Origin: an uncultured Burkholderiales bacterium
GTDB taxonomy: Bacteria > Actinomycetota > Acidimicrobiia > IMCC26256 > JACPCJ01
Direction of reading: 5' to 3'
NCBI GenBank assembly: GCA_964615175.1
Contig: CAZTOV010000002.1
Location: 1 to 60,050, forward strand
DNA length: 60,050 nucleotides
In this document: positions 958 through 60,050 of the stretch, one piece after another
How positions within the stretch are numbered: the stretch's first letter is position 1
Layout: the number at the start of each line of letters is the position of its first letter
Position numbers and translations under genes: made by a program
Notes under the pieces: model-generated
Told to the model about the DNA's origin: nothing
Databases searched by the model: none
Seen by the model: only the letters and a program-made list of their open reading frames with translations

Positions 958-1002
958 TGGCGCCCCCGGCAGGATTCGAACCTGCGGCACGCGGTTTAGG
1001 AA
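958..1002 (-). pseudogene. 3' half of the host tRNA-Arg(CCT), forming one island att junction
   Basis: Minus strand reads TTCCTAA-ACCGC-GTGCC-GCAGG-TTCGAAT-CCTGC-CGGGGGC-G-CCA: anticodon loop, T arm, acceptor strand and encoded CCA. No D arm lies upstream. Confidence 0.9.
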
Positions 1003-1110
1003 CTGAGAAAGGCGACGACGACGAACCTGCCTAGATTGAGCGTCGTCCCAGGTCAGACCCGTCTTTCGAGTGACCGCCAATGACCAGCGCCACCCCTGAG
1101 GGGCCGCCCG

Positions 1111-1129
1111 GTGGGGCACATGTGGGGCA
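1111..1129 (+). repeat. Putative integrase arm-type sites (left end)
   Basis: GTGGGGCA repeated with an 11-bp period (1111-1118, 1122-1129); TGACCAGCG at 1081 also recurs at 13060. Confidence 0.5.
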
Positions 1130-1395
1130 GCTGCTGAGTGCCGACTGCCGGCACTCAGGTCCCTCCCCATTTGCCGAGGACCTTGTGAGACACTGGCCCT
1201 GATTTACCCCGTCCCCGTGGCGGGACGCAATCGCGATGACGAAGAGGAGGTGACCTGCGATGACACCGAGATGTATATGCGTCCGGCGCGTTTAGCCGGG
1301 CGCAAAGGCGGCGACTTTGGGCCAGGCTCAGAGGCCTGACAGCGGCGCAGACGGTGGTCACAGAAACCCAACGTCTCCCAAGTCGTCCCTGAACA

Positions 1396-1698
1396 ATGGT
1401 TTGTGCCGCGTGCTCGTCCACTGAGGACGAGCGTCAGGCGCTGAGTCTTGACGTGCAATGCACGGAGAGGCTCATGCAAAAGACAATTGAAGCGCTCTAC
1501 GACTGGCTTGAGTGCCTGGACGGGATCCAGCGTTTCGCCGTATACCTCCGGTTCTGGTGTGACCTGACTGAGGCTCAAATCGGTGAATTGCTGTTCGGGG
1601 ACCTGGAGAACGTCTCACTGAGTGAGCGTCGAAGCCGTGCACACGATGTCCTCCGCGCCGCACTTCGGAAACTGCGGCGTAGGGCGGGTGTGGCGTGA
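1396..1698 (+). CDS. Small protein with a sigma-70 region 4-like helix-turn-helix (possibly a remnant)
   Basis: LDGIQRFAVYLRFWCDLTEAQIGELL...RAALRKLR resembles sigma region 4. No region 2 is present and the start is uncertain. Confidence 0.5.
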   Translation: MVCAACSSTEDERQALSLDVQCTERLMQKTIEALYDWLECLDGIQRFAVYLRFWCDLTEAQIGELLFGDLENVSLSERRSRAHDVLRAALRKLRRRAGVA

Positions 1699-2089: not shown

Positions 2090-5000
2090 ATGACTCTGTC
2101 TCCAGCTCACCGTGGGTACGTCCACCAGGACGTGGTCACGGCGTACGCGCTCGCATGCCTTCTCCTTCCAGGCTCCACTGATGATGAGGTTGTGGCCAAT
2201 CGGAAGCTGTCCGCTGACGATGTCTTCGATGATCTTGGTCTGTTCGGGAAGGCAACGCGACGCATTCAGATAAAGAGCCACGTAGGCGACCGTCGCCAGC
2301 TGTCGAGTGCTGATCTGGCCACTGACCAGATCAGCTTCCGGATCGACCGCGCGATTCGAAGCGTGGTTGGTGACGAGACGCTGGCTGATCAGTACCGGTT
2401 GGTTGTGACGTTTGATGCGCCCGACGACTCCCTACTCCCGTTTCTCACGCCCGCACCGCATCGCGACCCCTTTCTTCCGTACCTCTCCACGCTCCGATAC
2501 GAGCTTGACGTCGACGCCCTCTGGCCAGCAGACAGTGTCCCGAGCTGGCGTCAGTTGAACGCATTCGACCGACCGACGTTCGTGCGGTTTGCTGAGCGAT
2601 TTGTCGTTGAGACGGACTGCCCATCCTCCTCTGGTGATCTTGCCGCTCTGGGCAGTCTCGAGAGTGCGTTGCTTGAGCTCCTCGAGAGGAGTCTTGGCGC
2701 TGGCCACCCGCCCAATCGGGACCGCAGCCCCTTGGACGTGCTTGCCCACCTGGTCCAGTTCGCGCAAACGGCGCGGGTGCATCAGGCAAGCAGGAGGTCC
2801 GGGGAGGTGCTCATCGCGACTGGGCTTAGGGACGATTTCGGCCGCGTTGAAGAACGTTTGCCACTCGACAAAGACCGTCTTGTGGCTCGGGAGCCTGCGC
2901 TCGACGAGCTTGTCGAGGCCGTTCATGAAGGACCGCGTGTCGTGGTTAGGGGGCCACCGGGAATCGGTAAGTCCTGGATGTTGTCGCAGCTTCACGACCG
3001 TCTGGCGAAAGATGGTTGGATCGTTGCCACGCACTACTGCTTTATCGATCCGCTCGATGTGATGCGGGAGCGACGCATCGCCACGGACGTAATCTTCGGC
3101 AGCCTGATCGCCGAGCTTCTCGATGCTGACCCGTTGCTGAGGACCGATCGCGTACCGCGCTTCGCCGCTGGTCCTCGAGAACTGGAAACCATCCTCACCA
3201 ACGGCGCGGCCAACATCCCGAAGCGACGGATCGCCATAGTCGTCGACGGCCTCGACCATGCGGACCGGATCCACGCGGGTCTGCCCTCGCGCTTGGCGGG
3301 CGAAATCGCTGAAGAGCTCGCGGATCTCAACCTCCCAGACAGTGTTGTGTTGGTCGTTGGTTCACAGCCGGGGGACCATCTCGAACCCCTTCTCGCCCAA
3401 GCGCGGGCGTATGACCTCACGCGATGGGATGATCCGCACATCCAGGAGCTGGCTTTGCGAGCTGGAGTCGACGCTGCCCTCGCTGAAGCCGGACTGGACG
3501 ACGAAGCGGACGCGGTGATCGACGCGATCGTGTTGACTGCCGCAGGCAACCCTCTGTATGCGACATATCTGGCTCGAACCGCCATGCAGGTTGCCAGGGG
3601 CGACGCTGTACCGCCCGACGGCTTCGACCTCGCGGAGCACCTTCGTTCGGCGCCGCCGTTCGACGACTACTACGCATGGCTGTTGAAGAGTCTCGGGCTT
3701 GACACAGGGGTCACCTTCTTGGCCCAGCTTCTCGCGACAGTCGCGTTTCCGGTCACAACTGCCGAGATTGCTGAAATCCTCCCTGAAATGAGCCATCTCG
3801 TGCCGGAGATGCTCAGGCGACTCAGCCCAGTGCTAGCCGGGGATCCGGACCGAGGCGGAGTTCGTGCCTACCACGAGAGTTTCCAACGACACGTAGTCGC
3901 AGCCGACCCAGATCTCGATCATTCGAGGATGGTCGTTCCGGTGATCGATTGGCTTGTCGCTCGCGACTTCTTTGCCGATGAGAGAGCCTTCCGGTTTCTC
4001 TTCCCCCTCCTTCGCACGGCACAGCGCGACGAGGACCTGCTGGCGCTGATTGACGTTGATTTCGTGACGCGCGCCGCACAGCATTGTCAGCCTGGTGATG
4101 CGGTCATCGCGAACCTGAGTACGGCAGCGCAAGCAGCAGCCGGCCTTCAAGCGTGGGCTTCCCTCACCGAGCTTGTGGAACTCGCGCGTGCGGCTCAGTA
4201 CCTCTATTCGTGGCGGCTTGACGTTGACGAGTTTCTAGCCGAGAGCTTCGGGCGTGCCTACGCGGGTTTATTCGGAGCGCCCGCTCTGGCGGCACGTCTC
4301 CTCCACGACGGTCGTTGCACGTTCCGCCCGCGTCCGGGGTTGTTGCTCTGTCGACTATGCGATGACGAGGGTGTCGATGCACCGTGGGCCGAGTACAGAG
4401 CCGCGTACCACCAGCAGCGCCAGACAGACAACACCATCTACAGCGGTGACGGTGGGGCAATCACGGAGGCCAGGCTCGTGGGGACCCTTCGGATAGCCGG
4501 TCGCGACCGCTCCATCGAACTCGCGGTTCGCTGGCTTGCAAGCTCGGACGGTCCGCCGGTTCATCCGCATGAGCTTGTATGGCTCGTCGGCGACATGTAC
4601 GGCTTCGACGCCGCAACATCGGTCACCGACTCGCTGGAGCGAGGTGAGGAGCGTGCCTGGGGGCGCGTTGCAGCGGCACACTTCGCGGCCGAACTCGACA
4701 CGGCCAGTGCTCTCGCGGAAGCTGCGCTCCAGGACGGGCTCCCCCGGGAGGGCATTCCTGACTGCCTCATGCTCGGGGTTGACCCAGCGTTCGTACCGCC
4801 ATCGGGGACCGATCTCGAAAGTCTTACTCGTGAGATCTTGACCCGCGCAGTGCGACTTGAAGACAATCTGCTCACGCGATGGCTCACTGAACTCGATGTT
4901 TTAGGAGCCAAGGGCGACGAGGCAGCCCTCTTCCGGGTTGAGAACTTGATCCCCTCGGATACCTGGTATCACCGATGGCTTCGGTTCGCGGTCGCTCTGC

Positions 5001-8000
5001 GTCGCGATCTTGACGACGCCACCGTGCTTTCGGATCTCCACCGTCTCTCGGACGAGATCGAGGTGTTTCAGGGCGATCCCCGTGTCGTTGACCTGTACCC
5101 GATCCTTGGAGACATCCGAGCCTCATTCCGCCAGATGCTTGGTCGCCTGGACGACGAGGATTGGTCAACGGCGCTCGACGCTCTCGTCACGATCGGAGCA
5201 AAGACGACTACCTGGCTAGACGGTTCTCGCAACGGCCCCTTGCCGATCGATGCGCTGCTCGCACTCATCCTTGAAGCGGCTAACACCGAACCCAAGAGGA
5301 GGAAGGCGAGTCAGGTGGCAGCCCAGCTCCTCGAGGTGGGCGAGCTCGGAGGGGAGTTTTACGAGACCCACGCCGATGACCACTTCCTTTTGGCGAGGGT
5401 GCACGCTGCGGCTGGCAACCGGGAACTTGCAGAACGAGCATGGCGAACGGGCTGCCGCTACCTCTCAGGATACGGGTGGCGGAAGGACATCACCGTCTAC
5501 GAAGTGGTCGATCCGCTCAGCGCCCTCGCGGACGCGGACCCAGAACGCGTTCGCGCAGCGCTGAGAGAAGTCCAGTCGATTGTGGAGGGTGTGCTTGTTC
5601 ACACAGACGGCCGCGAGACGCGACATGCCATCCACGCGTGGATCGATCTTGCAGCTCGACGACATCCGGAAGGTGCCCTCACCCACCTCGCCAACGAAGA
5701 CATGCTCCGCGTTCCCTCGTTTGGCGATCTAGATCACGCATTCCCGATCGCACTATCAGCTCTTCACGAGGACCTGCCGGCCATCATTTCGGCCGCGGGA
5801 TGGGTCGGCGCCGGGACCGAAGTCCGACGGACCCCCCGGGCAGGTCTTGCAGGATGCGAAGTCGCCGCAACCGCAGACGCCGACACCGCCTGGTCCGCTG
5901 TGGTCGCCGCGGTTGTTGGCGACGGAACCGGGTGCCCACCCGGAGCAACAGCGGAAATCCTCGCGTCGGCCGAACGACTCGGTCGCACGGTTGGCGAACT
6001 TCCCGCCGAACCCGTGGACGATGGAGAACCTGCGAATCACCCCATCTCCCCCCTTCGTCATCAGCCGTTCTCCGACACACTCATTGGCCCCACGGTGTTC
6101 GAAATCGATCACGACGGCCTGCTGCAGATCGCAGCCGGGGTTCGGCGATGGCGCGCTCAGCCGGAACGGATCAGTGCTGACGCCGTTGTCAACGCGGTTG
6201 GCTGGCGGCTACTCGTCATGTACGACGCTGGTCGCCGCGACGAAGCAGAAGACCTCCTACGCCGCATCGCCCGCGACACGCCAACATGGCCCGCCGATGA
6301 TCTCTTGGTCGCGCTCGCCGAAGGTCTCACGCGCTTTGGGGCATCAAGCCTCGCAGCCCTGGCTGCAACGCTCGCCTACACGCGCGCCCGAGACGGGTGG
6401 CGGCGCTTTGCGGGTACGGACGGGCAAGATGTCTTTCTCAGCGGTGTGCATCTCGACGACAAGACTGCGTGGGCCACGCTTGCGGCGGAGGTGGCCGATG
6501 GCGTTGCCCGGGGCGGTGAGAACGGAATCACCGTCCACCTCATTGAGGTTCTAGCCGCCGCTGGGCGGACCGATGAGGCGTATGCTGCCTGGGCCGCGGC
6601 CCGTCGGGTGATCGAAAACCGCCTACCGGCAACAGGGCCCGCAGATTCCATTGAGGTTGTCTACGACGACACTGCCGCCGTCCCCCTCTCAGCGCTGACG
6701 GAGGCGCTTGTAGGTCGTCTCAACCACTGTCTTGTTGCGGAACGTCGCGCCGCCACGGCGGGCTTGGCCCTCCTTGCGTCGCAGGATGGGCTAGCCATCG
6801 GATCAGCGATTGAGTTTGCTGCGCACCGGGCTCCAGTGTCGGTACTGATCGCGGTACTTCAGATCGCCGACTCGTATGAGCCGGAGCCCTACGAAGGAAC
6901 GCGGCGATGTGAGGACGTGCTCCAGGAAATTGCCCGCGGTGAACTGGTCTCAGCGCGAGTGCTTGCACGGCGCCTCCTCCAACGAGCTGGCTTCTCGACC
7001 AATGTCGCTCCAGCCCTCGAAGTGCCAATCGCCCCAGCCCTCGACGATGAGCGGATCGACATGCTTCGACGCTTGATCGGGGAAGCACGCCTAAGACCAA
7101 TCGAAGCCGTATGGCCAGACTTTGGACGAGTAGCGGCCCAACAACTGGAACTCGTATGGAGCAGCGATGAGTTCCGCGACCAGATGAAGTCAGTGCTTCA
7201 GAGGCTCAAGCAGGATCGACACCGCCGCGACATCGACGCCTGGATGCCGGAGGCCGAGGCAAGGGTGCGCGTCCTGCAAACAACGGCAACTGCGGCCAGA
7301 TCGGCTCTGGCGTCAGCCGGCACCATTGATCCAAGGGTCGAGGACGAGGTTGGGCTGAGCCTGCTCGGAATGTTGGACCTGGGTGTGCGTTTCAGCCTCA
7401 GCCGAACGCTTCGACCGCAGGATTATCCGTTGCCGACCGAAACCGCGACCATGGACAGTGAAGCGGGTCTGCGAGCCGTCGACGAAGCCGGAGATTTCGA
7501 AGGTTGGATCGTGCTTGCCCATCACGAGCGTGAACTCGTCCGAGGAGACGAATACGACAAGCCCCTTGTGGCCAATCACGAGACCTGGTCCGGGCTGCAG
7601 TTCACCGAGGGCCCCTTGGACCTCAGCGGCCAACTGCCCCTCGGGATCGGAAATGCCGAACTATGGCTCAGGGTCGGTGCCACCGAAGCAGTACCTCCGG
7701 TGTTCCAAGGCCCAACCGCCGGCCTTGACGTCTGCCTGGACGCTTGGAGCACCGTCGAAGTGCTGACCCCTCATCCTGCCCTTGTCTTAGCGGCCGACCT
7801 GCGCCCGGCTCCCTTTGCAGATGGCCTGACTCTCCTCGATTCCGCCGGCAATCCGGCGGTCGTCGCGCGCCAGTGGCGACAGGAGACCCTCCGCGATGAG
7901 GAGCTGAGCGAGCAGGAGTACCGCATCGTCGGTAGAGATCTCCTTGCCCGACCAGATGTCGTGACAACACTCGCAGGCAGAGCCATTGGTGAGCCCGTAC

Positions 8001-8044
8001 ACATGACCACAACTGTTGTTCGAGACTCGCCCAGTAGTTGGTGA
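2090..8044 (+). CDS. Nuclease-STAND NTPase, AVAST/Avs-like anti-phage protein
   Basis: 1984 aa; N-terminal GYVHQD and FDD...IQIK (Cap4/Mrr-like PD-(D/E)xK pattern), Walker A GPPGIGKS, Walker B IAIVVDGLD, GNPLY motif and a long helical C-terminus. Confidence 0.8.
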   Translation: MTLSPAHRGYVHQDVVTAYALACLLLPGSTDDEVVANRKLSADDVFDDLGLFGKATRRIQIKSHVGDRRQLSSADLATDQISFRIDRAIRSVVGDETLADQYRLVVTFDAPDDSLLPFLTPAPHRDPFLPYLSTLRYELDVDALWPADSVPSWRQLNAFDRPTFVRFAERFVVETDCPSSSGDLAALGSLESALLELLERSLGAGHPPNRDRSPLDVLAHLVQFAQTARVHQASRRSGEVLIATGLRDDFGRVEERLPLDKDRLVAREPALDELVEAVHEGPRVVVRGPPGIGKSWMLSQLHDRLAKDGWIVATHYCFIDPLDVMRERRIATDVIFGSLIAELLDADPLLRTDRVPRFAAGPRELETILTNGAANIPKRRIAIVVDGLDHADRIHAGLPSRLAGEIAEELADLNLPDSVVLVVGSQPGDHLEPLLAQARAYDLTRWDDPHIQELALRAGVDAALAEAGLDDEADAVIDAIVLTAAGNPLYATYLARTAMQVARGDAVPPDGFDLAEHLRSAPPFDDYYAWLLKSLGLDTGVTFLAQLLATVAFPVTTAEIAEILPEMSHLVPEMLRRLSPVLAGDPDRGGVRAYHESFQRHVVAADPDLDHSRMVVPVIDWLVARDFFADERAFRFLFPLLRTAQRDEDLLALIDVDFVTRAAQHCQPGDAVIANLSTAAQAAAGLQAWASLTELVELARAAQYLYSWRLDVDEFLAESFGRAYAGLFGAPALAARLLHDGRCTFRPRPGLLLCRLCDDEGVDAPWAEYRAAYHQQRQTDNTIYSGDGGAITEARLVGTLRIAGRDRSIELAVRWLASSDGPPVHPHELVWLVGDMYGFDAATSVTDSLERGEERAWGRVAAAHFAAELDTASALAEAALQDGLPREGIPDCLMLGVDPAFVPPSGTDLESLTREILTRAVRLEDNLLTRWLTELDVLGAKGDEAALFRVENLIPSDTWYHRWLRFAVALRRDLDDATVLSDLHRLSDEIEVFQGDPRVVDLYPILGDIRASFRQMLGRLDDEDWSTALDALVTIGAKTTTWLDGSRNGPLPIDALLALILEAANTEPKRRKASQVAAQLLEVGELGGEFYETHADDHFLLARVHAAAGNRELAERAWRTGCRYLSGYGWRKDITVYEVVDPLSALADADPERVRAALREVQSIVEGVLVHTDGRETRHAIHAWIDLAARRHPEGALTHLANEDMLRVPSFGDLDHAFPIALSALHEDLPAIISAAGWVGAGTEVRRTPRAGLAGCEVAATADADTAWSAVVAAVVGDGTGCPPGATAEILASAERLGRTVGELPAEPVDDGEPANHPISPLRHQPFSDTLIGPTVFEIDHDGLLQIAAGVRRWRAQPERISADAVVNAVGWRLLVMYDAGRRDEAEDLLRRIARDTPTWPADDLLVALAEGLTRFGASSLAALAATLAYTRARDGWRRFAGTDGQDVFLSGVHLDDKTAWATLAAEVADGVARGGENGITVHLIEVLAAAGRTDEAYAAWAAARRVIENRLPATGPADSIEVVYDDTAAVPLSALTEALVGRLNHCLVAERRAATAGLALLASQDGLAIGSAIEFAAHRAPVSVLIAVLQIADSYEPEPYEGTRRCEDVLQEIARGELVSARVLARRLLQRAGFSTNVAPALEVPIAPALDDERIDMLRRLIGEARLRPIEAVWPDFGRVAAQQLELVWSSDEFRDQMKSVLQRLKQDRHRRDIDAWMPEAEARVRVLQTTATAARSALASAGTIDPRVEDEVGLSLLGMLDLGVRFSLSRTLRPQDYPLPTETATMDSEAGLRAVDEAGDFEGWIVLAHHERELVRGDEYDKPLVANHETWSGLQFTEGPLDLSGQLPLGIGNAELWLRVGATEAVPPVFQGPTAGLDVCLDAWSTVEVLTPHPALVLAADLRPAPFADGLTLLDSAGNPAVVARQWRQETLRDEELSEQEYRIVGRDLLARPDVVTTLAGRAIGEPVHMTTTVVRDSPSSW

Positions 8045-8324: not shown

Positions 8325-10295
8325 TCATGAGAGCTCTGGATCTTGTAGTTCCAGTAGCGCTGATAGCGCTTGATGAATTTCGACGAGAGGCTTCTTCTGA
8401 TCCGCTGCCAGAATCCTCGTGCGTCGCCCCACTGTGGCGAGACGGTCAGCGACCTTGCGCTTCGAAGGAGGATCGACGCCGCGCTCATCGCACCAGGCAG
8501 CCAGTGCTACGGCACGACCCGGTGTTGTCAGGCTTCCTGCTTCGATCTGGACCTCAGTCCCATGAGATCGGCGCAGCTCCTCGTTCACCGCGTCAAGGAA
8601 GGCTTCCTCTGTCACTAGGTCCTCCGGCGTATATCTGTCGGGCAACCGTAAGATTTCCCTGTCTTCAACGCCGGCTCCCCGCAGCTTCGCCGCATGTGCT
8701 CGTCCACTCTTGTCTCCGTCAAGGAGATACGCCACGCGTGGCGCTTCGAGAGACAGAGCGGCCGCCTTCTCAGGCTCCACCTCCGCAAGGCCCGGCGCGA
8801 TCTGAAAGTGCAGGTGGTCGGCATCCAAGGCCTGTCTGAAAAGCGTGGGGAGCAGAATGAAATCTGCAGCGCCCTCGGTGATCACAGCTCGGCGAGTCGG
8901 GACTAGTGCTAGAACACTTGCGCCCATGGCCAGCATCAGGGGCGAGAATCCGGCCCCTTCTGTCCAGAAGGAATTGCTGACTTCGCTCTGGCCTATGTCT
9001 TCACCGTTGTCATCCAGCACCGGTCGTACAACGCGAACGCCGCGACCCAAATCCTGAGGAAGGCAACCTGCAGAGTGGGTCGTGTAGATGATCTGTGCCG
9101 CGGTCTTCTGTTCGGTGAACACGCGAACCAAATCCGCCTGGGCATCGTAATGGAGGTGATTCTCGGCCTCATCGATGAGGAGCACAGGCGGATTTTCAAA
9201 CGCATGAAGGAATGTGTACGCGTACATGGCCACGAATGTCCGTAGCCCATCCGACCGTTCAGCCAGGGGGGTGAAAACGCCTCCAGGAGCCGATACCTGC
9301 ACGCGCACGGCCGCTTCATCGATCTGCAATTCCGGCGTTACATCGGACTGACGCCACGCAGACCCGAACCGTTCGCGAAGTCGGCGATTCGCGCGATCTT
9401 GAATCGTGTACCGGTCTTCATGTCGGCCGGTCGCCATGGCCTGGCGAAGCTGGGCCTCGTCGACCTCGGCCAGTGCTAAGAGATTTCCGAGCGCCGCCGG
9501 CGGGTTGGCAAGCTGCTGTTCGCCGTATTCACTCGCGAGCTGGCGATCTTCGTCTTCAAACTTCAGAAGCGGTGGACACCGGGCTGAAAGGTACTCCAGC
9601 AGATCGGCTTGGGGGTGTCTTGCCCGCTCATGCTCAAGCAATGACCCTATGCACTCGATCAAGCCCGCAAGCCAGCGGTCCGCCACCTTTGACTCAGCGT
9701 GCTCCGAAAGCTTCTCAGCGGTTGAACGCGCGGTGTCGAGCGCTCCCAACACTTCGTTGTCAAGGGTTTCGTCTTCTGTATCGAGGTCAATCAGTAAGCC
9801 GTCCAGCTGCTGCGTCAACGGAGTATGTTCATCTGCCTCCTCGGCATCTTCGTCCTGAGGCGCAGCGAGTTCATCAGGCGGGGCAGATGGCGGCCTCGAT
9901 TCCATCATGCTGCTCAACTTCTGGCGTACCTCAACCCGGGGCCGTCTATCGCGGCGATAAGGGTCCGACAAGACATCGTTGACTTGTCCATCGGGACGCT
10001 TGTGGCGCACTAAGAAGCGCGGAGTCCCGATGCCGCCTAGCTGGTCGGCGTACGTACGCTCCTCTTCATTGAGGGCGTAGGTGAGTTCCACCACTCGGTG
10101 ATCGGCGGGTGGATGTGTTCCGCGAGTGATGTCCGAGCCGAATGCCTCGGTGTGTTCGAGGGAGACGAGCGCGTCAAGTAGAGAACTCTTCCCCGCTTCG
10201 TTGGGGCCGACGATTGCGACGACAGGCTCATCAAGATCGACTGTCACATTGTGGAATCGCCGAAAGCCTCGGAGTCGAGCCTTGATTAGATCCAT
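8325..10295 (-). CDS. OLD-family ATP-dependent nuclease (ABC ATPase + TOPRIM)
   Basis: Likely start MDLIKARLRGFRRF at 10295; Walker A GPNEAGKS, signature RSDGLR, Walker B LLIDEAENHLH, IYTTHS; TOPRIM motifs ITEGAAD and LLDGD. Confidence 0.85.
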   Translation of the reverse strand: MDLIKARLRGFRRFHNVTVDLDEPVVAIVGPNEAGKSSLLDALVSLEHTEAFGSDITRGTHPPADHRVVELTYALNEEERTYADQLGGIGTPRFLVRHKRPDGQVNDVLSDPYRRDRRPRVEVRQKLSSMMESRPPSAPPDELAAPQDEDAEEADEHTPLTQQLDGLLIDLDTEDETLDNEVLGALDTARSTAEKLSEHAESKVADRWLAGLIECIGSLLEHERARHPQADLLEYLSARCPPLLKFEDEDRQLASEYGEQQLANPPAALGNLLALAEVDEAQLRQAMATGRHEDRYTIQDRANRRLRERFGSAWRQSDVTPELQIDEAAVRVQVSAPGGVFTPLAERSDGLRTFVAMYAYTFLHAFENPPVLLIDEAENHLHYDAQADLVRVFTEQKTAAQIIYTTHSAGCLPQDLGRGVRVVRPVLDDNGEDIGQSEVSNSFWTEGAGFSPLMLAMGASVLALVPTRRAVITEGAADFILLPTLFRQALDADHLHFQIAPGLAEVEPEKAAALSLEAPRVAYLLDGDKSGRAHAAKLRGAGVEDREILRLPDRYTPEDLVTEEAFLDAVNEELRRSHGTEVQIEAGSLTTPGRAVALAAWCDERGVDPPSKRKVADRLATVGRRTRILAADQKKPLVEIHQALSALLELQDPELS

Positions 10296-10453
10296 CCAAG
10301 CACCGTAGCTACAGCACCAGCGGGAACGCTGGGAAGGCACGCACGACCTGGTCAACGAAAGCTTGCCCAGGAGAAGCTTGATGAACGATGGCCTGTGGGA
10401 CTTGTGCCCTTCCGTCTAAGACGATTCTGCGAAGCATGTGTGGGTGCATTGCG

Positions 10454-10918
10454 CTAGTCGGCGCGGATGGGAATGACGCACAGGAGGTGATTTGCCTCGC
10501 CCTGGATGGCATCCACCACCGCACCCAGCTCCCTGTTGAGACGCAACATGCCTACATTCCTGCGGTGGACAATGGAGTCCACTGCACGTGCGCCAGCGGC
10601 CTGTGCTTCAGCGACCACAGCTTCCTTGAGCTGACGCCCGTAGCCCTGACGCTGGGTTCCGACGGCGACCGCGATGACATCGACCCGACAGACCACCCAG
10701 TCCTGCGTCAATTCGGTGATGCGCCAGGCAGCGACACCGCGCAGAGCTGCGTGATTATCGAAGAGGCCGAGCGCCGAAATTCGACCGGCTGCAATCTGGT
10801 CGCTCAGATGATCGCGGACCGTCTCTTGGATGACCTCCGTCCAAGGTTCCCCCAGGCGGGCGCATGTGAATTGTTCAAGGGGCAGCTGGTCGTCGACGGT
10901 CAGCGGCCGTAGCAGCAC
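10454..10918 (-). CDS. GNAT acetyltransferase, probable toxin
   Basis: 154 aa; acetyl-CoA motif AV...QRQGYGRQL; N-terminal EQFTC recalls the F-x-C of AtaT/TacT-type toxins; starts 7 bp after the Panacea gene. Confidence 0.75.
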   Translation of the reverse strand: MLLRPLTVDDQLPLEQFTCARLGEPWTEVIQETVRDHLSDQIAAGRISALGLFDNHAALRGVAAWRITELTQDWVVCRVDVIAVAVGTQRQGYGRQLKEAVVAEAQAAGARAVDSIVHRRNVGMLRLNRELGAVVDAIQGEANHLLCVIPIRAD

Positions 10919-10925
10919 GTGGGCC

Positions 10926-11471
10926 CTATGCGTGTTCTCTCAGAACCCGGAGCGTTGCCTCGCGTAGATCGTCGTTGATCGCTGGTCCATCGAATCCGTA
11001 GATATCGCGCCGCTCGCGCAGCCGACGGACCTCGGCGTGGTGTGATTCAAAGTCGTCGTCTGATCGGAACCAAGCGGCGAGGCGGTCATGAGTGATTTCG
11101 GGATTTGCGACGGTGAAGCTGTGATCGGCCTCGGTCACCTCACGCCAAGGGTCTTCTAGGTGCGTCATTCTCTTCAATGTCGATCCGGAGTGGTGACCGT
11201 ACCGATCAACGACATAGTTGATGACCGCGAGCTGCTCATCCCCAAGGTTCTGCGTAGCTGGACGGGGACGGTCTCGCTTCTCGTCATGCCACAGGTCTGC
11301 CACGACCGGGCCTTGGTCCCAAGCTTCGATTGGTTCTTCGAATATGGGCTTGCCGAGCCACGTCACGTGCCAGCCCTGGCAGTAGTAGGCGAGTTTGTGG
11401 ATCTTCATGTCGCCAGCGTCAGGAAGGCGGCGCCGCAGTTCTTGAACTACGTCGTGAGCAGAGAGCATCAC
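10926..11471 (-). CDS. Panacea domain (DUF4065/SocA-like) antitoxin
   Basis: KIHKLAYYCQGWH, IFEEPIEAWDQGPVV and LKRMTHLEDPW motifs; GGAGG RBS and a TAATGT -10 (11495-11500) upstream. Confidence 0.9.
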   Translation of the reverse strand: MMLSAHDVVQELRRRLPDAGDMKIHKLAYYCQGWHVTWLGKPIFEEPIEAWDQGPVVADLWHDEKRDRPRPATQNLGDEQLAVINYVVDRYGHHSGSTLKRMTHLEDPWREVTEADHSFTVANPEITHDRLAAWFRSDDDFESHHAEVRRLRERRDIYGFDGPAINDDLREATLRVLREHA

Positions 11472-11614
11472 CTAGCACCTCCTCGTCGGTATCGACATTA
11501 ACGATTGGGTAAGACACTCAAGGCGATGCCCTGACTGCCTTCCCGCCCACCCTCGGCTCCTCGAGCAGTTGATCTGTCTAGCCACAGCATCGAGCCGAGA
11601 GGCGCTGACATGTG

Positions 11615-11687
11615 TGCCCCAGGCAGGATTCGAACCTGCGACCTACCGCTTAGGAGGCGGTTGCTCTCTCCCCTGAGCTACTGGGGC
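11615..11687 (-). tRNA. Complete island-encoded tRNA-Arg(CCT)
   Basis: GCCCCAG TA GCTC AGGGGAGA GAGC A ACCGC CTCCTAA GCGGT AGGTC GCAGG TTCGAAT CCTGC CTGGGGC A folds as a full cloverleaf (73 nt, CCA not encoded); TACGCT -10 at 11698-11703. Confidence 0.95.
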
Positions 11688-11855
11688 GGGACGGCCCAGC
11701 GTACGCCTCATCTTCCGGTCTCTCCGGTGTCCGAGGCGCCTGGTATATGTCGTGGATGCCTCGTCGAGGTTCATCCGAGGAGGGGTTGGGTCACAGCGCG
11801 GCCTCGATCGCCGCCAGGAACGCATGCGGTCTTGTGAGTTCTGGGGGCATCTGCG

Positions 11856-12998: not shown

Positions 12999-13017
12999 CG
13001 GGCACGCAGCGGGCACG
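12999..13017 (+). repeat. Putative integrase arm-type sites (right end)
   Basis: CGGGCACG repeated with an 11-bp period (12999-13006, 13010-13017), sharing the GGGCA core of the left-end pair. Confidence 0.5.
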
Positions 13018-13112
13018 AGCGATGGTGCAAAAAACCGCGTGTCGCCTCTCGCAACGCTCTGACCAGCGGAAACGGCCGACACCAGCGGCCATTCACGGCT
13101 ACCCGCGGGGAC

Positions 13113-13150
13113 TTAGGAAACCACTGCTCTATCCCCTGAGCTACGGGGGC
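13113..13150 (-). pseudogene. 5' half of the host tRNA-Arg(CCT), forming the other island att junction
   Basis: Minus strand GCCCCCG TA GCTC AGGGGATA GAGC A GTGGT TTCCTAA, followed by non-tRNA sequence; GCCCCCG pairs with CGGGGGC of the 3' half at 962-968. Confidence 0.9.
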
Positions 13151-32151: not shown

Positions 32152-33770
32152 TCCGCTTCGAGCACGCCACCGTGACCTACCCGGGACTGTCGACCCCGGC
32201 GCTGAACGATGTGAGCCTCGACATCCCCGAGGGCGAGCTGTGTCTCGTGGTGGGGCGCACCGGTTCGGGGAAGTCCACTCTCCTCCGATCGGTCAACGGC
32301 CTCGTTCCCTGGTTCACCGGCGGTCTCCTGGAGGGATCGGTCTCGGTCGGCGACCGTTCCACCGCGAACAACCCGCCCCGCGAACTCGCCGACCTGGTCG
32401 GCATGGTGAGCCAGACGCCGGCGGCCGATTTCGTCACCGACGTGGTGGAGGACGAGCTGGCGTACACGATGGAGAACCTCGCCGTCCCCCCCGACGCCAT
32501 GCGGCAGCGGGTCGAGGAAGTGATCGACCTGCTCGGTCTGCAGGACGTGCGTCACCGGGCGCTGACGGAACTCTCGTCGGGCCAGCAGCAGCGGGTGGCG
32601 ATCGGTTCGGTGATGGCGGCGTCGCCGCGGGTCCTGCTGCTCGACGAGCCGACCTCGGCGCTCGACCCCGGCGCCGCCGAGGAGGTCCTGGCCGCCATCA
32701 CCCGGTTGGTCCACGATCTCGGAATCACGGTCGTGCTGGCCGAGCATCGCCTCGAGCGGGTCGTCCAATACGCCGACCGGGTGGTCGTCCTCGAAGAGGG
32801 TCGGATGCGGCAGGGCGCGCCGCCCGAGATGATGGAGGACGCGCCGGTGGCGCCCCCGGTGGTCGAGCTGGGGCGCCTGGCCCGGTGGTCTCCGCTCCCG
32901 CTGTCGGTACGCGAAGCCCGCCGCTCGGCCGGCCCTCTCCGCGACCGCCTCGGCCCGGACCCCGAGAGTGTGAGCATTCAGCGGGGTCATGACCCCGCTG
33001 AATGCTCACACTCCCTGGGGACGGTCGATGGCCTGGTGGCGCGTTACGGAGCGGTGACCGCGGTGGCCGGCGTCGACTTCGACGTCGGGCGGTCCGAGGT
33101 GGTGGCGGTGATGGGCCGTAACGGCGCCGGGAAGTCGACGCTGCTCGCGCACCTCGCCGGGATCAAGGCGCCCGAGCGGGGAACGGTGAGGGTCGGGGGC
33201 GACGCCCCGCACGAGCTGGCGCCGCGCGAACTCGTACGCCGCGTCGCACTTGTGCCGCCCGACCCGGCCTTGCTCCTCTACGGCAGTTCGGTGCGGGAGG
33301 AGTGCGAACTCGCGGACGGCGAGGGTGGGCTCGAGGCGGGGGCGACCGCTCGGGCGGTGGCCGAGTTGCTCCCCGGGGTCGACGGCGAGCGGCACCCGCG
33401 CGACCTCTCCGAGGGCCAGCGCCTCGCCCTGGCTCTGGGGATCGTCCTCGCGCCCGGTCCCGAGCTGGTCCTCCTCGACGAGCCGACCCGCGGGCTCGAC
33501 TACGAAGCGAAGCGTCACCTCATTGCCGCTCTGCGACGGCTGACCGTCGCAGGAGGTGGCGTCGTGCTCGCGACCCACGACGTGGAGTTGGTCGCCGAAG
33601 TGGCGACGCGTGCGGTGGTCATGGCCGAGGGCGAGATCGTCGCCGACGGGCCGGCCCGTGAGGTGGTGGGCGCATCACCGATGTTCGCCCCCCAGGTCGC
33701 CAAGATCCTCCAACCGGCCTCGTGGCTCACGGTGTCGGAGGTGCGCAACGCGCTGGAGGCGGCGGGATGA
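32148..33770 (+). CDS. ECF transporter ATPase with two ABC domains
   Basis: GRTGSGKS / LSSGQQQR / LLLDEP and GRNGAGKS / LSEGQR / LLDEP. Confidence 0.92.
   Translation: MIRFEHATVTYPGLSTPALNDVSLDIPEGELCLVVGRTGSGKSTLLRSVNGLVPWFTGGLLEGSVSVGDRSTANNPPRELADLVGMVSQTPAADFVTDVVEDELAYTMENLAVPPDAMRQRVEEVIDLLGLQDVRHRALTELSSGQQQRVAIGSVMAASPRVLLLDEPTSALDPGAAEEVLAAITRLVHDLGITVVLAEHRLERVVQYADRVVVLEEGRMRQGAPPEMMEDAPVAPPVVELGRLARWSPLPLSVREARRSAGPLRDRLGPDPESVSIQRGHDPAECSHSLGTVDGLVARYGAVTAVAGVDFDVGRSEVVAVMGRNGAGKSTLLAHLAGIKAPERGTVRVGGDAPHELAPRELVRRVALVPPDPALLLYGSSVREECELADGEGGLEAGATARAVAELLPGVDGERHPRDLSEGQRLALALGIVLAPGPELVLLDEPTRGLDYEAKRHLIAALRRLTVAGGGVVLATHDVELVAEVATRAVVMAEGEIVADGPAREVVGASPMFAPQVAKILQPASWLTVSEVRNALEAAG
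32966..33013. repeat. 48-bp perfect palindrome inside the ATPase linker
   Basis: GAGTGTGAGCATTCAGCGGGGTCA|TGACCCCGCTGAATGCTCACACTC. Confidence 0.9.
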
Positions 33771-58916: not shown

Positions 58917-60050
58917 ATGAAGACGACCGAGCGTTCGAAGTTGGTCAGGTTCGTCGCGGGACCGCTGGTCGCCGCGATGCTCGTTCCGCTGGCGGCGACC
59001 ACCGTCGTGCAGGTGACGACGAGTGCCGAGCTGCTTGCCGCGACCCCGTTCGAGGTCGTGGTCGTCGATGCGGCCAATCCGAGCGGGAGTTCGACGACCC
59101 GGGCGCTCCAGGCCGATACGACGTATGCGCTCGAGGCTTCGGGAACGTTCCAGCACGGGACCGGGGAGGCTGACGCGGAGTGCGCCCGGCTGCCCGGTGA
59201 TCCCCGCTGGCACCGCCAGCCCTTCCCGAGCGAGGGGGACCACTTCATCGATCTCCTCGTTGCCGAGAACGGCGTCGCGTGGGTCGCGACCAGCGCGGAT
59301 TCGATGGGCTGCAACACCTCGAACCATCGCTACACGTACACGTTCGTTCCCGCGTCCACCGGCCCCGTCAACTTCCGGATCAACGACGCTGCCTTCAACG
59401 ACAACCTCGGCACCCTCAGCGTCACCATCACCGAGGTGACCGAGAACGATCCCGCCCAGGACGTGCAGGACGAAGCCGAGCGGACGAAGGCCGAGGCCGA
59501 GGAGAAGCCGGGCGAGGTCGAAGAGGCCGTGGAACGGGAGCGCCAGAAGGCCGAGGAGGACGCCAAGGACGCCGAGGACGAGGCGGCGGCGGCCAAGCAG
59601 CAGGCCGAGGACGAGGCGATGGCGGCCAAGCAGCAGGCCGAGGACGACCTCATGGCCGAGAAGGAGAAGATCGAGGAGACCGCCACCGAGGAACTCGGCG
59701 ACGCCGGCGACGACGTCTTCGCGGCGAAGGAGCAGGCCGAGGAGGATGCCAAGCGGGCTGAAGATGACGCGATGGCGGCCAAGCAGCAAGCGGAGGACGA
59801 TGCCGCGGCCGCCGAGGACGAAGCGCGGCGCAGGGCCGCCGAGATCGCCGGCGATCCCGAACCCGGCCCCATTGCCGAAGCCGTGGTCGCTGCCGTCAAC
59901 AGCCTGAAGTCGGACGCCGAAAAGACGGCGGAAGACCTCGGCCGCAACGAGGTGCCCGTTCCATCCGACGACGATGACTCGGGTTCCGACGACGGTGACT
60001 CGGGTTCCGACGACGGTGACTCGGGTTCCGACGACGGTGACTCGGGTTCC
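58917..60050 (+). CDS. Secreted protein (3' end beyond the window) with one 'DAEC' domain, 11-mer helical repeats and a D/G/S tail
   Basis: GGGGAGG RBS; MKTTERSKLVRFVAGPLVAAML...GTFQHGTGEADAEC...HRYTYTF...VNFRIND...LSVTITEV, then AAKQQAEDEAM-type repeats. It is absent from the ORF track because it has no stop in the window. Confidence 0.85.
   Translation, partial: MKTTERSKLVRFVAGPLVAAMLVPLAATTVVQVTTSAELLAATPFEVVVVDAANPSGSSTTRALQADTTYALEASGTFQHGTGEADAECARLPGDPRWHRQPFPSEGDHFIDLLVAENGVAWVATSADSMGCNTSNHRYTYTFVPASTGPVNFRINDAAFNDNLGTLSVTITEVTENDPAQDVQDEAERTKAEAEEKPGEVEEAVERERQKAEEDAKDAEDEAAAAKQQAEDEAMAAKQQAEDDLMAEKEKIEETATEELGDAGDDVFAAKEQAEEDAKRAEDDAMAAKQQAEDDAAAAEDEARRRAAEIAGDPEPGPIAEAVVAAVNSLKSDAEKTAEDLGRNEVPVPSDDDDSGSDDGDSGSDDGDSGSDDGDSGS
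59976..60050 (+). repeat. 21-bp coding tandem repeat (DSGSDDG)n
   Basis: GACTCGGGTTCCGACGACGGT x3 plus a partial copy running to the window end. Confidence 0.92.

Follow-up and report, generated by a model that had tools for sequence, protein, structure and literature searches.

A 12.1-kb integrase island that splits a host tRNA-Arg(CCT) gene and carries a likely captured natural allele, a predicted poor target for its own integrase

Architecture of the island

The window, which is the whole 60,050-nt stretch of DNA that was analysed, holds near its left end a tyrosine-integrase island of 12.1 kb with defence-like cargo, which interrupts the host tRNA-Arg(CCT) gene at a 7-bp overlap in the anticodon loop. 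The parts of the host gene, the replacement tRNA and the integrase are arranged as follows, in window coordinates.

958..995, (-) strand: orphan 3' half of the host tRNA-Arg(CCT), with the stem 3' strand ACCGC first, then the variable loop, T arm, acceptor 3' strand and an encoded CCA
996..1002, (-) strand: attR copy of the overlap TTCCTAA (anticodon loop), 7 bp
11614..11687, (-) strand: complete replacement tRNA-Arg(CCT) found by ARAGORN, a natural allele of C32 type, with stem strands ACCGC/GCGGT and loop CTCCTAA
11856..12965, (+) strand: tyrosine integrase of 369 aa, with R202, K240, H307, R310, H333 and Y343 invariant in 28 relatives
13113..13119, (-) strand: attL copy of the overlap TTCCTAA, 7 bp
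13120..13150, (-) strand: orphan 5' half of the host tRNA-Arg(CCT), which ends in the stem strand GTGGT and is followed by non-tRNA island DNA

The sequence identity between attL and attR is exactly 7 bp, that is, the duplicated loop heptamer TTCCTAA. Rejoined in silico, the host halves, which lie 12.1 kb apart, form a normal-scoring 76-nt tRNA-Arg(CCT), and ARAGORN finds no tRNA at attL or attR. A decayed tRNA 3' half was sought in attP, where 13 of 38 positions match in register, which is not significant (p 0.37), and inspection of attP by eye only for a 5'-half remnant left no significant one. GC content is about 60-65% between the junctions, against about 70% on the right flank. The island tRNA is the sole intact tRNA in the window and the sole intact CCT tRNA that ARAGORN finds in the genome (G000), whose assembly is 77% complete. 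The promoter and terminator scan was blank, with no sigma-70-type promoter upstream of the island tRNA.

Just beyond attR, positions 351-907 of the window hold a small antitoxin-like ORF and a MazF-like ORF, which are also present in related strains apparently devoid of the island. Farther right, there are a near-perfect, spacerless 35-bp inverted repeat (32955-33024), a repeat of 33-nt period (59491-59816) and four copies of a 21-nt tandem repeat (59943-60047), the last two near the window end. Three distinct tRNA-Arg(CCG) genes are found on contigs C93, C188 and C426 of G000, two of them at the edges of small contigs, which may reflect contamination or islands.

The island in public sequencing runs

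In three soil samples of one study, which may include the source sample, island contigs occur at about host depth (8-15x), with even depth over the island and its flanks. The attR junction is bridged by one contig each in two of those three runs, and pieces of 1505 and 1507 nt, with 0 differences, link the island tRNA, the integrase and the host 5' half. A mis-assembly that joined the tRNAs of different organisms might be suspected from the fragmentation of G000 into 461 contigs and from the public contigs, which break at tRNAs; the bridged attR, the even depth and the two linking pieces make this scarcely credible, although these runs are from one study and possibly from the source.

Run X4, which belongs to another study, has contigs of equal depth (10.3) and about 93-96% identity that join the left flank to the 3' half and the 5' half to the right flank; the island is almost uncovered, and no single piece among those listed spans the empty site. 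A related strain with the site empty appears to be present in this run. In run X5, of a third study, short near-identical island pieces (such as one of 625 nt with 0 differences) give only a hint of the island there. Joints that skip the island in X1-X6 and X11 were considered as excision products and dropped, as they may be tRNAs of other organisms.

Integrase and attachment sites

The relatives of the integrase are labelled mostly Acidimicrobiia or Actinomycetota, so the host is probably a member of these groups. A single-protein scan of viral contigs gave no integrase relative, and an alignment scan replaced this query. In the tree (FastTree), the integrase belongs to an 8-row clade with support 99, in which the window's branch is long (0.69), and a tRNA-Arg(CCT) lies within 4.3 kb of the integrase in five of its seven clade-mates. 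These relatives are canonical tRNA islands at the same TTCCTAA site. They use the TT-CCT-AA overlap, which is near-palindromic, in either orientation (L033, L034 and L130 versus L030, L038, L084 and others), and their tRNA is restored by a 3' half or by a 5' half. The tRNA and the integrase share a strand in the closest clade-mates; in the window they are oppositely oriented. No second island that splits and replaces its target was found in 240 integrase loci, many of which are short and whose tRNA halves were found by pattern only, nor in the 26 counted from a further set of 30 loci, where three unpublished ones were left out and one was the window itself. In the L034 locus, a further 5' half and a TTCCTAA junction in inverted orientation lie beyond the restored tRNA on its downstream side, around +1475 to +1651 relative to the integrase.

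Short motifs and repeats flank the two outer junctions:

1049..1054, (+) strand: CAGGTC motif, placed 47 nt inward of attR; the G012 element has a similar one at 45 nt from its overlap
1114..1130, (+) strand: direct repeat pair GGGCAC/GGGCAG with an 11-nt period, predicted arm-type integrase sites
13000..13016, (+) strand: GGGCAC direct repeat pair, predicted arm-type sites
13060..13066, (+) strand: TGACCAG motif, 53 nt from the overlap; the distances are 55, 55 and 53 nt in the relatives L033, L038 and L179

The repeat pairs are taken as putative arm-type sites by analogy with the attP layout given in the legend of Fig S1 of PMC10865867. They lie 102-122 nt inside each outer junction and none adjoins the island tRNA, a placement that fits a single attP-derived unit. 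The island could instead consist of two tandem elements, the central tRNA being a junction product, with its 5' half from one element and its 3' half from the other, later converted to the C32 allele. Arrays are common at this site in the order, reaching as many as four 5' halves (G089, G155), and the exchange of alleles in place that is suggested in genus g15 (see below) would provide the conversion. Nevertheless, the central tRNA lacks arm-type repeats, the integrase points away from it on the opposite strand, such a layout is unseen in the 240 loci, and the 10.6-kb part would have no integrase, all of which renders a tandem origin very unlikely.

An excisionase-like HTH gene precedes the integrase in all seven clade-mates and in 82 of the 130 family loci with enough upstream DNA. 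The search of the island for such a gene found none, the best match (E 0.03) lying inside the span of another gene. The slot that the excisionase-like gene takes in the clade-mates (the region of 11688-11855, upstream of the integrase) is occupied here by the island tRNA. Excisionase-like genes are present elsewhere in the G000 genome, so supply in trans is possible.

Origin of the replacement tRNA

The first-pass annotation read the island tRNA as a replacement whose anticodon arm had been rewritten, and the sequences that it gave are correct: the host arm is GTGGT-TTCCTAA-ACCGC and the island arm ACCGC-CTCCTAA-GCGGT, and comparison of the genes confirms that the D arms are one base apart and the T arms identical. 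The swap of stem strands that it pointed out is literal, as the island 5' strand equals the host 3' strand and the island 3' strand equals the host 5' strand with one mismatch. In total, 15 of 73 positions differ between host and island tRNAs, more than had been listed, and the 17 positions of the anticodon arm take eight of them (hypergeometric p 0.004); the others comprise three in the variable loop, two in the acceptor pair 6-67, one in the D loop and the discriminator. The arginine identity bases A20, C35 and U36 are conserved in the island tRNA.

This concentration of differences and the swapped look of the strands speak for an island that itself recoded the arm of a copied host gene. The comparison with chromosomal genes largely refutes that origin. 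Among 19 loci compared, positions 8-65 of the island tRNA have 0 differences from native-locus tRNAs of other families (in G011, G094 and G096) and are one base off those of six further genomes, so the wording "recoded" is not borne out. The island-type (GCGG-type) 3' arm is found in 24 of 186 genomes of the order, which represent 12 of 66 genera, and the host-type arm in 117; these tallies take in G000 and the unpublished G045, G084, G085 and G176. In the class, 39 of 401 genomes have the island-type arm, and it is also present in 40 stretches of viral contigs with 29-68% GC, another point against recoding by the island. The possibility that the stem type is simply a common chromosomal form, which the first-pass annotation had named as fatal to its proposal, is thus largely realised, and the allele is not enriched beside integrases (0 of 38 loci).

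In genus g15, either allele lies behind a common upstream sequence (40 of 45 nt), which suggests allele exchange in place within the genus. The two alleles of this genus differ at 12 positions, 11 of which are shared with the host-island comparison; hence the concentration of changes in the anticodon arm belongs to two natural classes of allele, and recoding by the island itself becomes highly improbable. The strand swap would likewise be a resemblance of two natural alleles, since an inversion would not produce it. The spare tRNA was likely captured from a related bacterium that carries the natural allele.

Either tRNA-Arg(CCT) allele is seen at one locus of one genus in G033 (L012, L027), G094 (L295) and G099-G101. 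G096 carries both alleles on two short contigs with matching upstream sequence and is likely a mixed bin. L293 (G096:C174:1-2042) shows a near-duplicate of tRNA-Arg(CCT), inverted and located where the contig begins, which may be an assembly artefact.

The island tRNA as a target of integration

As a rule, tyrosine integrases need identity of the overlap between the recombining sites. The survey of tRNAs adjacent to integrase homologues that the first-pass annotation had proposed gives a uniform picture, as GGT-TTCCTAA-ACC is present in all 21 full tRNA-Arg(CCT) genes among the 240 integrase loci, which are thus of host type. In the island tRNA the flanks are CGC and GCG and the first loop base is C, which is a mismatch at overlap base 1.

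Scars of integration show the same tendency. Extra tRNA halves occur in 38 of 114 host-type and 1 of 21 island-type published genomes (p 0.008), where the single island-type case is a contig overlap and 38 is an upper bound because the second copy in G041 is a divergent full tRNA and no scar. A strict count, restricted to 5' halves that were inspected or to repeats on a single contig, gives 20 of 114 versus 0 of 21 (p 0.04). Of 39 host-type loci, 6 have an integrase beside the tRNA; of 38 island-type loci (36 genomes), none has. The scar and adjacency counts exclude G000 and the two mixed genomes, G085 and G096. Doubled C32 matches in G132 and G244 were rejected as scars, being contig overlaps. 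Kinship reduces the signal: the 21 integrases fall into 10-18 clusters, for which the chance of all being host-type is 0.04-0.16, and a single draw for each island-type genus yields 0.02-0.15, so that the kin-corrected range is 0.02-0.16 overall.

Host-type genes form a hotspot: one array can contain as many as four 5' halves, each ending at TTCCTAA. Tandem arrays of small islands at tRNA-Arg(CCT), cut at TTCCTAA, are seen at G089:C5:284785-308704, at G155:C2:879297-902273 and on G090:C1; relatives of the present integrase were sought in the array stretches of G089 and G090 and gave no match.

By this comparison of sequences, the island tRNA is probably a poor target for the island's own integrase. 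The proposal that it cannot serve as attB gains comparative support in the weaker form of a likely poor target, and its attribution to recoding is not supported. Alternatively, the island tRNA may still be a usable secondary target, captured by chance as an allele of the order, with few lineages explaining the absence of scars. The base rate of the allele (24 of 141 typed genomes, about one in six of the order) makes chance capture plausible, and the kin-corrected signal is weak. Moreover, the attP flanks of the island match neither the host nor the island allele, so the integrase tolerates degenerate core sites on one partner, and integrases in three of 40 viral loci that have the island-type allele (one more locus has a duplicated 3' half) indicate that the allele is not universally immune. 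According to PMC10865867, some tyrosine integrases tolerate overlap mismatches, and tandem integration of cluster L plasmids into the replacement tRNA is proposed. By sequence, the spare tRNA of phage Fionnbharth keeps the loop of its attP region. The secondary sites of Fionnbharth, as PMC10865867 describes them, keep the left three core bases, which is the end altered in the island tRNA. The three comparative counts agree against a usable target, and the overlap and both half-sites are altered; we regard this alternative as rather unlikely, and a poor self-target as the better reading.

Cargo genes and escape from nucleases

The island carries the following genes besides the integrase:

1396..1698, (+) strand: small ORF with a weak sigma-70 region 4-like HTH, below curated cut-offs
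2090..8044, (+) strand: STAND/NACHT-like NTPase of 1984 aa (AAA_16, NPHP3_N), predicted defence cargo
8325..10355, (-) strand: ABC-type ATPase, predicted OLD-family nuclease, with its true start probably near 10295 (656 aa)
10454..10918, (-) strand: GNAT acetyltransferase, putatively the toxin that pairs with the Panacea gene
10926..11471, (-) strand: SocA/Panacea-domain antitoxin-like gene

No virion gene was found among the six island ORFs scanned (integrase, NTPase, ATPase-nuclease, GNAT, Panacea and small HTH). The Panacea gene followed by the GNAT gene (10454-11471) is likely a toxin-antitoxin pair. Relatives of the 8325..10355 product are named 'predicted ATP-dependent endonuclease of OLD family', and its C-terminal part has a weak match (E 1e-4) to a solved OLD protein; it also contains motifs, read by eye, that are presumably TOPRIM-like.

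Nuclease-resistant phage tRNAs were reportedly described by van den Berg in 2023. The first-pass annotation raised the idea that the island tRNA might escape anticodon-directed nucleases or toxins, and the spare could be kept for such resistance, for instance against the island's own OLD-like protein or GNAT. The island encodes both the predicted OLD-family ATPase-nuclease and the GNAT-Panacea pair, and, according to PMC12445682, P2-OLD cuts tRNA anticodon stems with a preference for paired CNG at 28-30 and 40-42. The phage tRNAs resistant to P2-OLD in that source resemble the present case as mobile-element tRNAs with an altered anticodon arm, which here lies beside an OLD-like gene. However, the CNG motifs of those tRNAs are altered and their stem is shortened, whereas the island arm keeps a full 5-bp stem and both paired CNG motifs (CCG, CGG) and the host arm has one only (TGG, CCG). 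By the P2-OLD rule, the spare would then be no more resistant than the host tRNA, and the escape idea is unsupported; as the OLD match is also weak, a role in resistance is considered unlikely.

Proposed mechanism and its meaning

With some confidence, we read the island as an element that splits the host tRNA gene unrepaired and carries as a spare a natural allele, likely captured, which is predicted to be a poor target for its own integrase. The tyrosine integrase likely inserted the 12.1-kb island at the 7-base anticodon loop and did not rebuild the gene, and the island spare would restore AGG decoding. The mismatch at overlap base 1 and the loss of the GGT/ACC flanks would block recombination with the spare. 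As no intact target is left and an excisionase-like gene is missing, the island would be largely locked in.

The codon AGG, at a frequency of 3.2 per 1000 codons, appears in 572 of the 838 long ORFs. A tRNA-Arg(TCT), which may decode AGG through wobble, is also present, and completeness of the assembly is 77%, so dependence on the spare is uncertain and may be weaker than in the phages described below.

Island finders that need a restored tRNA and a fragment would likely miss small non-phage islands of this design or place their bounds wrongly. The two alleles form a natural pair of tRNA-Arg(CCT) genes, one a hotspot and the other nearly free of island scars, which is a direct assay system for a tRNA gene that leaves the target range of an integrase family with its decoding kept. 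A broader proposal is possible but doubtful: the C32 allele may be a natural integration-resistant form that has spread repeatedly in the order and closes a hotspot at which several islands pile up in host-type genomes. The island would then exploit it by destroying the hotspot and putting a non-target allele where its excisionase gene had been, which would lock the island in and exclude competitors by target replacement.

Comparison with known systems

The closest system is the tRNA-dependent lysogeny of the actinobacteriophages Fionnbharth/K4, cluster L, Cain and Gaia (Guerrero-Bustamante and Hatfull 2024, PMC10865867). Three of its defining features are shared by the island and a fourth, being a temperate phage, is not. 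[quoted passage not shown] In contrast to the phages described there, the island has 12 kb, defence-like cargo, no excisionase found and a core of 7 bp rather than 8-17 bp, and its target tRNA-Arg(CCT) is absent from Table 2 of PMC10865867. The island spare differs from attP inside the loop, whereas the Fionnbharth spare keeps the 7-nt loop and differs in the stem, where the position of the Fionnbharth core was deduced from its sequence and from the text of PMC10865867; a loop mismatch is therefore not required for the design. The allele pair bears on whether replacement tRNAs avoid self-targeting, which that text leaves open.

In the Sinorhizobium meliloti prophages described in PMC11476347, central integration likewise inactivates a host tRNA and a replacement tRNA-Leu(UAG) is carried, which has 97.6% identity to a tRNA of another species and 80.6% to that of the host. 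Unlike the present non-phage island, these are prophages of Alphaproteobacteria. Canonical tDNA islands (Islander, PMC4383910) also have an on-board tyrosine integrase at a tRNA gene and mapped endpoints, but in the account given there the tRNA fragment of attP repairs the gene, and a target stays available to later islands; the island described here has no such fragment.

The split-and-replace design is already published for phages, and the present small island is a non-phage variant of it. The literature search, whose coverage excluded most subscription journals, listed no paper on non-phage split-and-replace islands or on allele-based target escape. The tRNA of Arthrobacter phage Elesar was considered as a match to this gene and rejected, as it is Arg(TCT) and not Arg(CCT). 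In Elesar (L548, MK392368), the complete tRNA-Arg(TCT) lies directly beside a tyrosine integrase at 4004-5000, which is possibly a further case of tRNA dependence.
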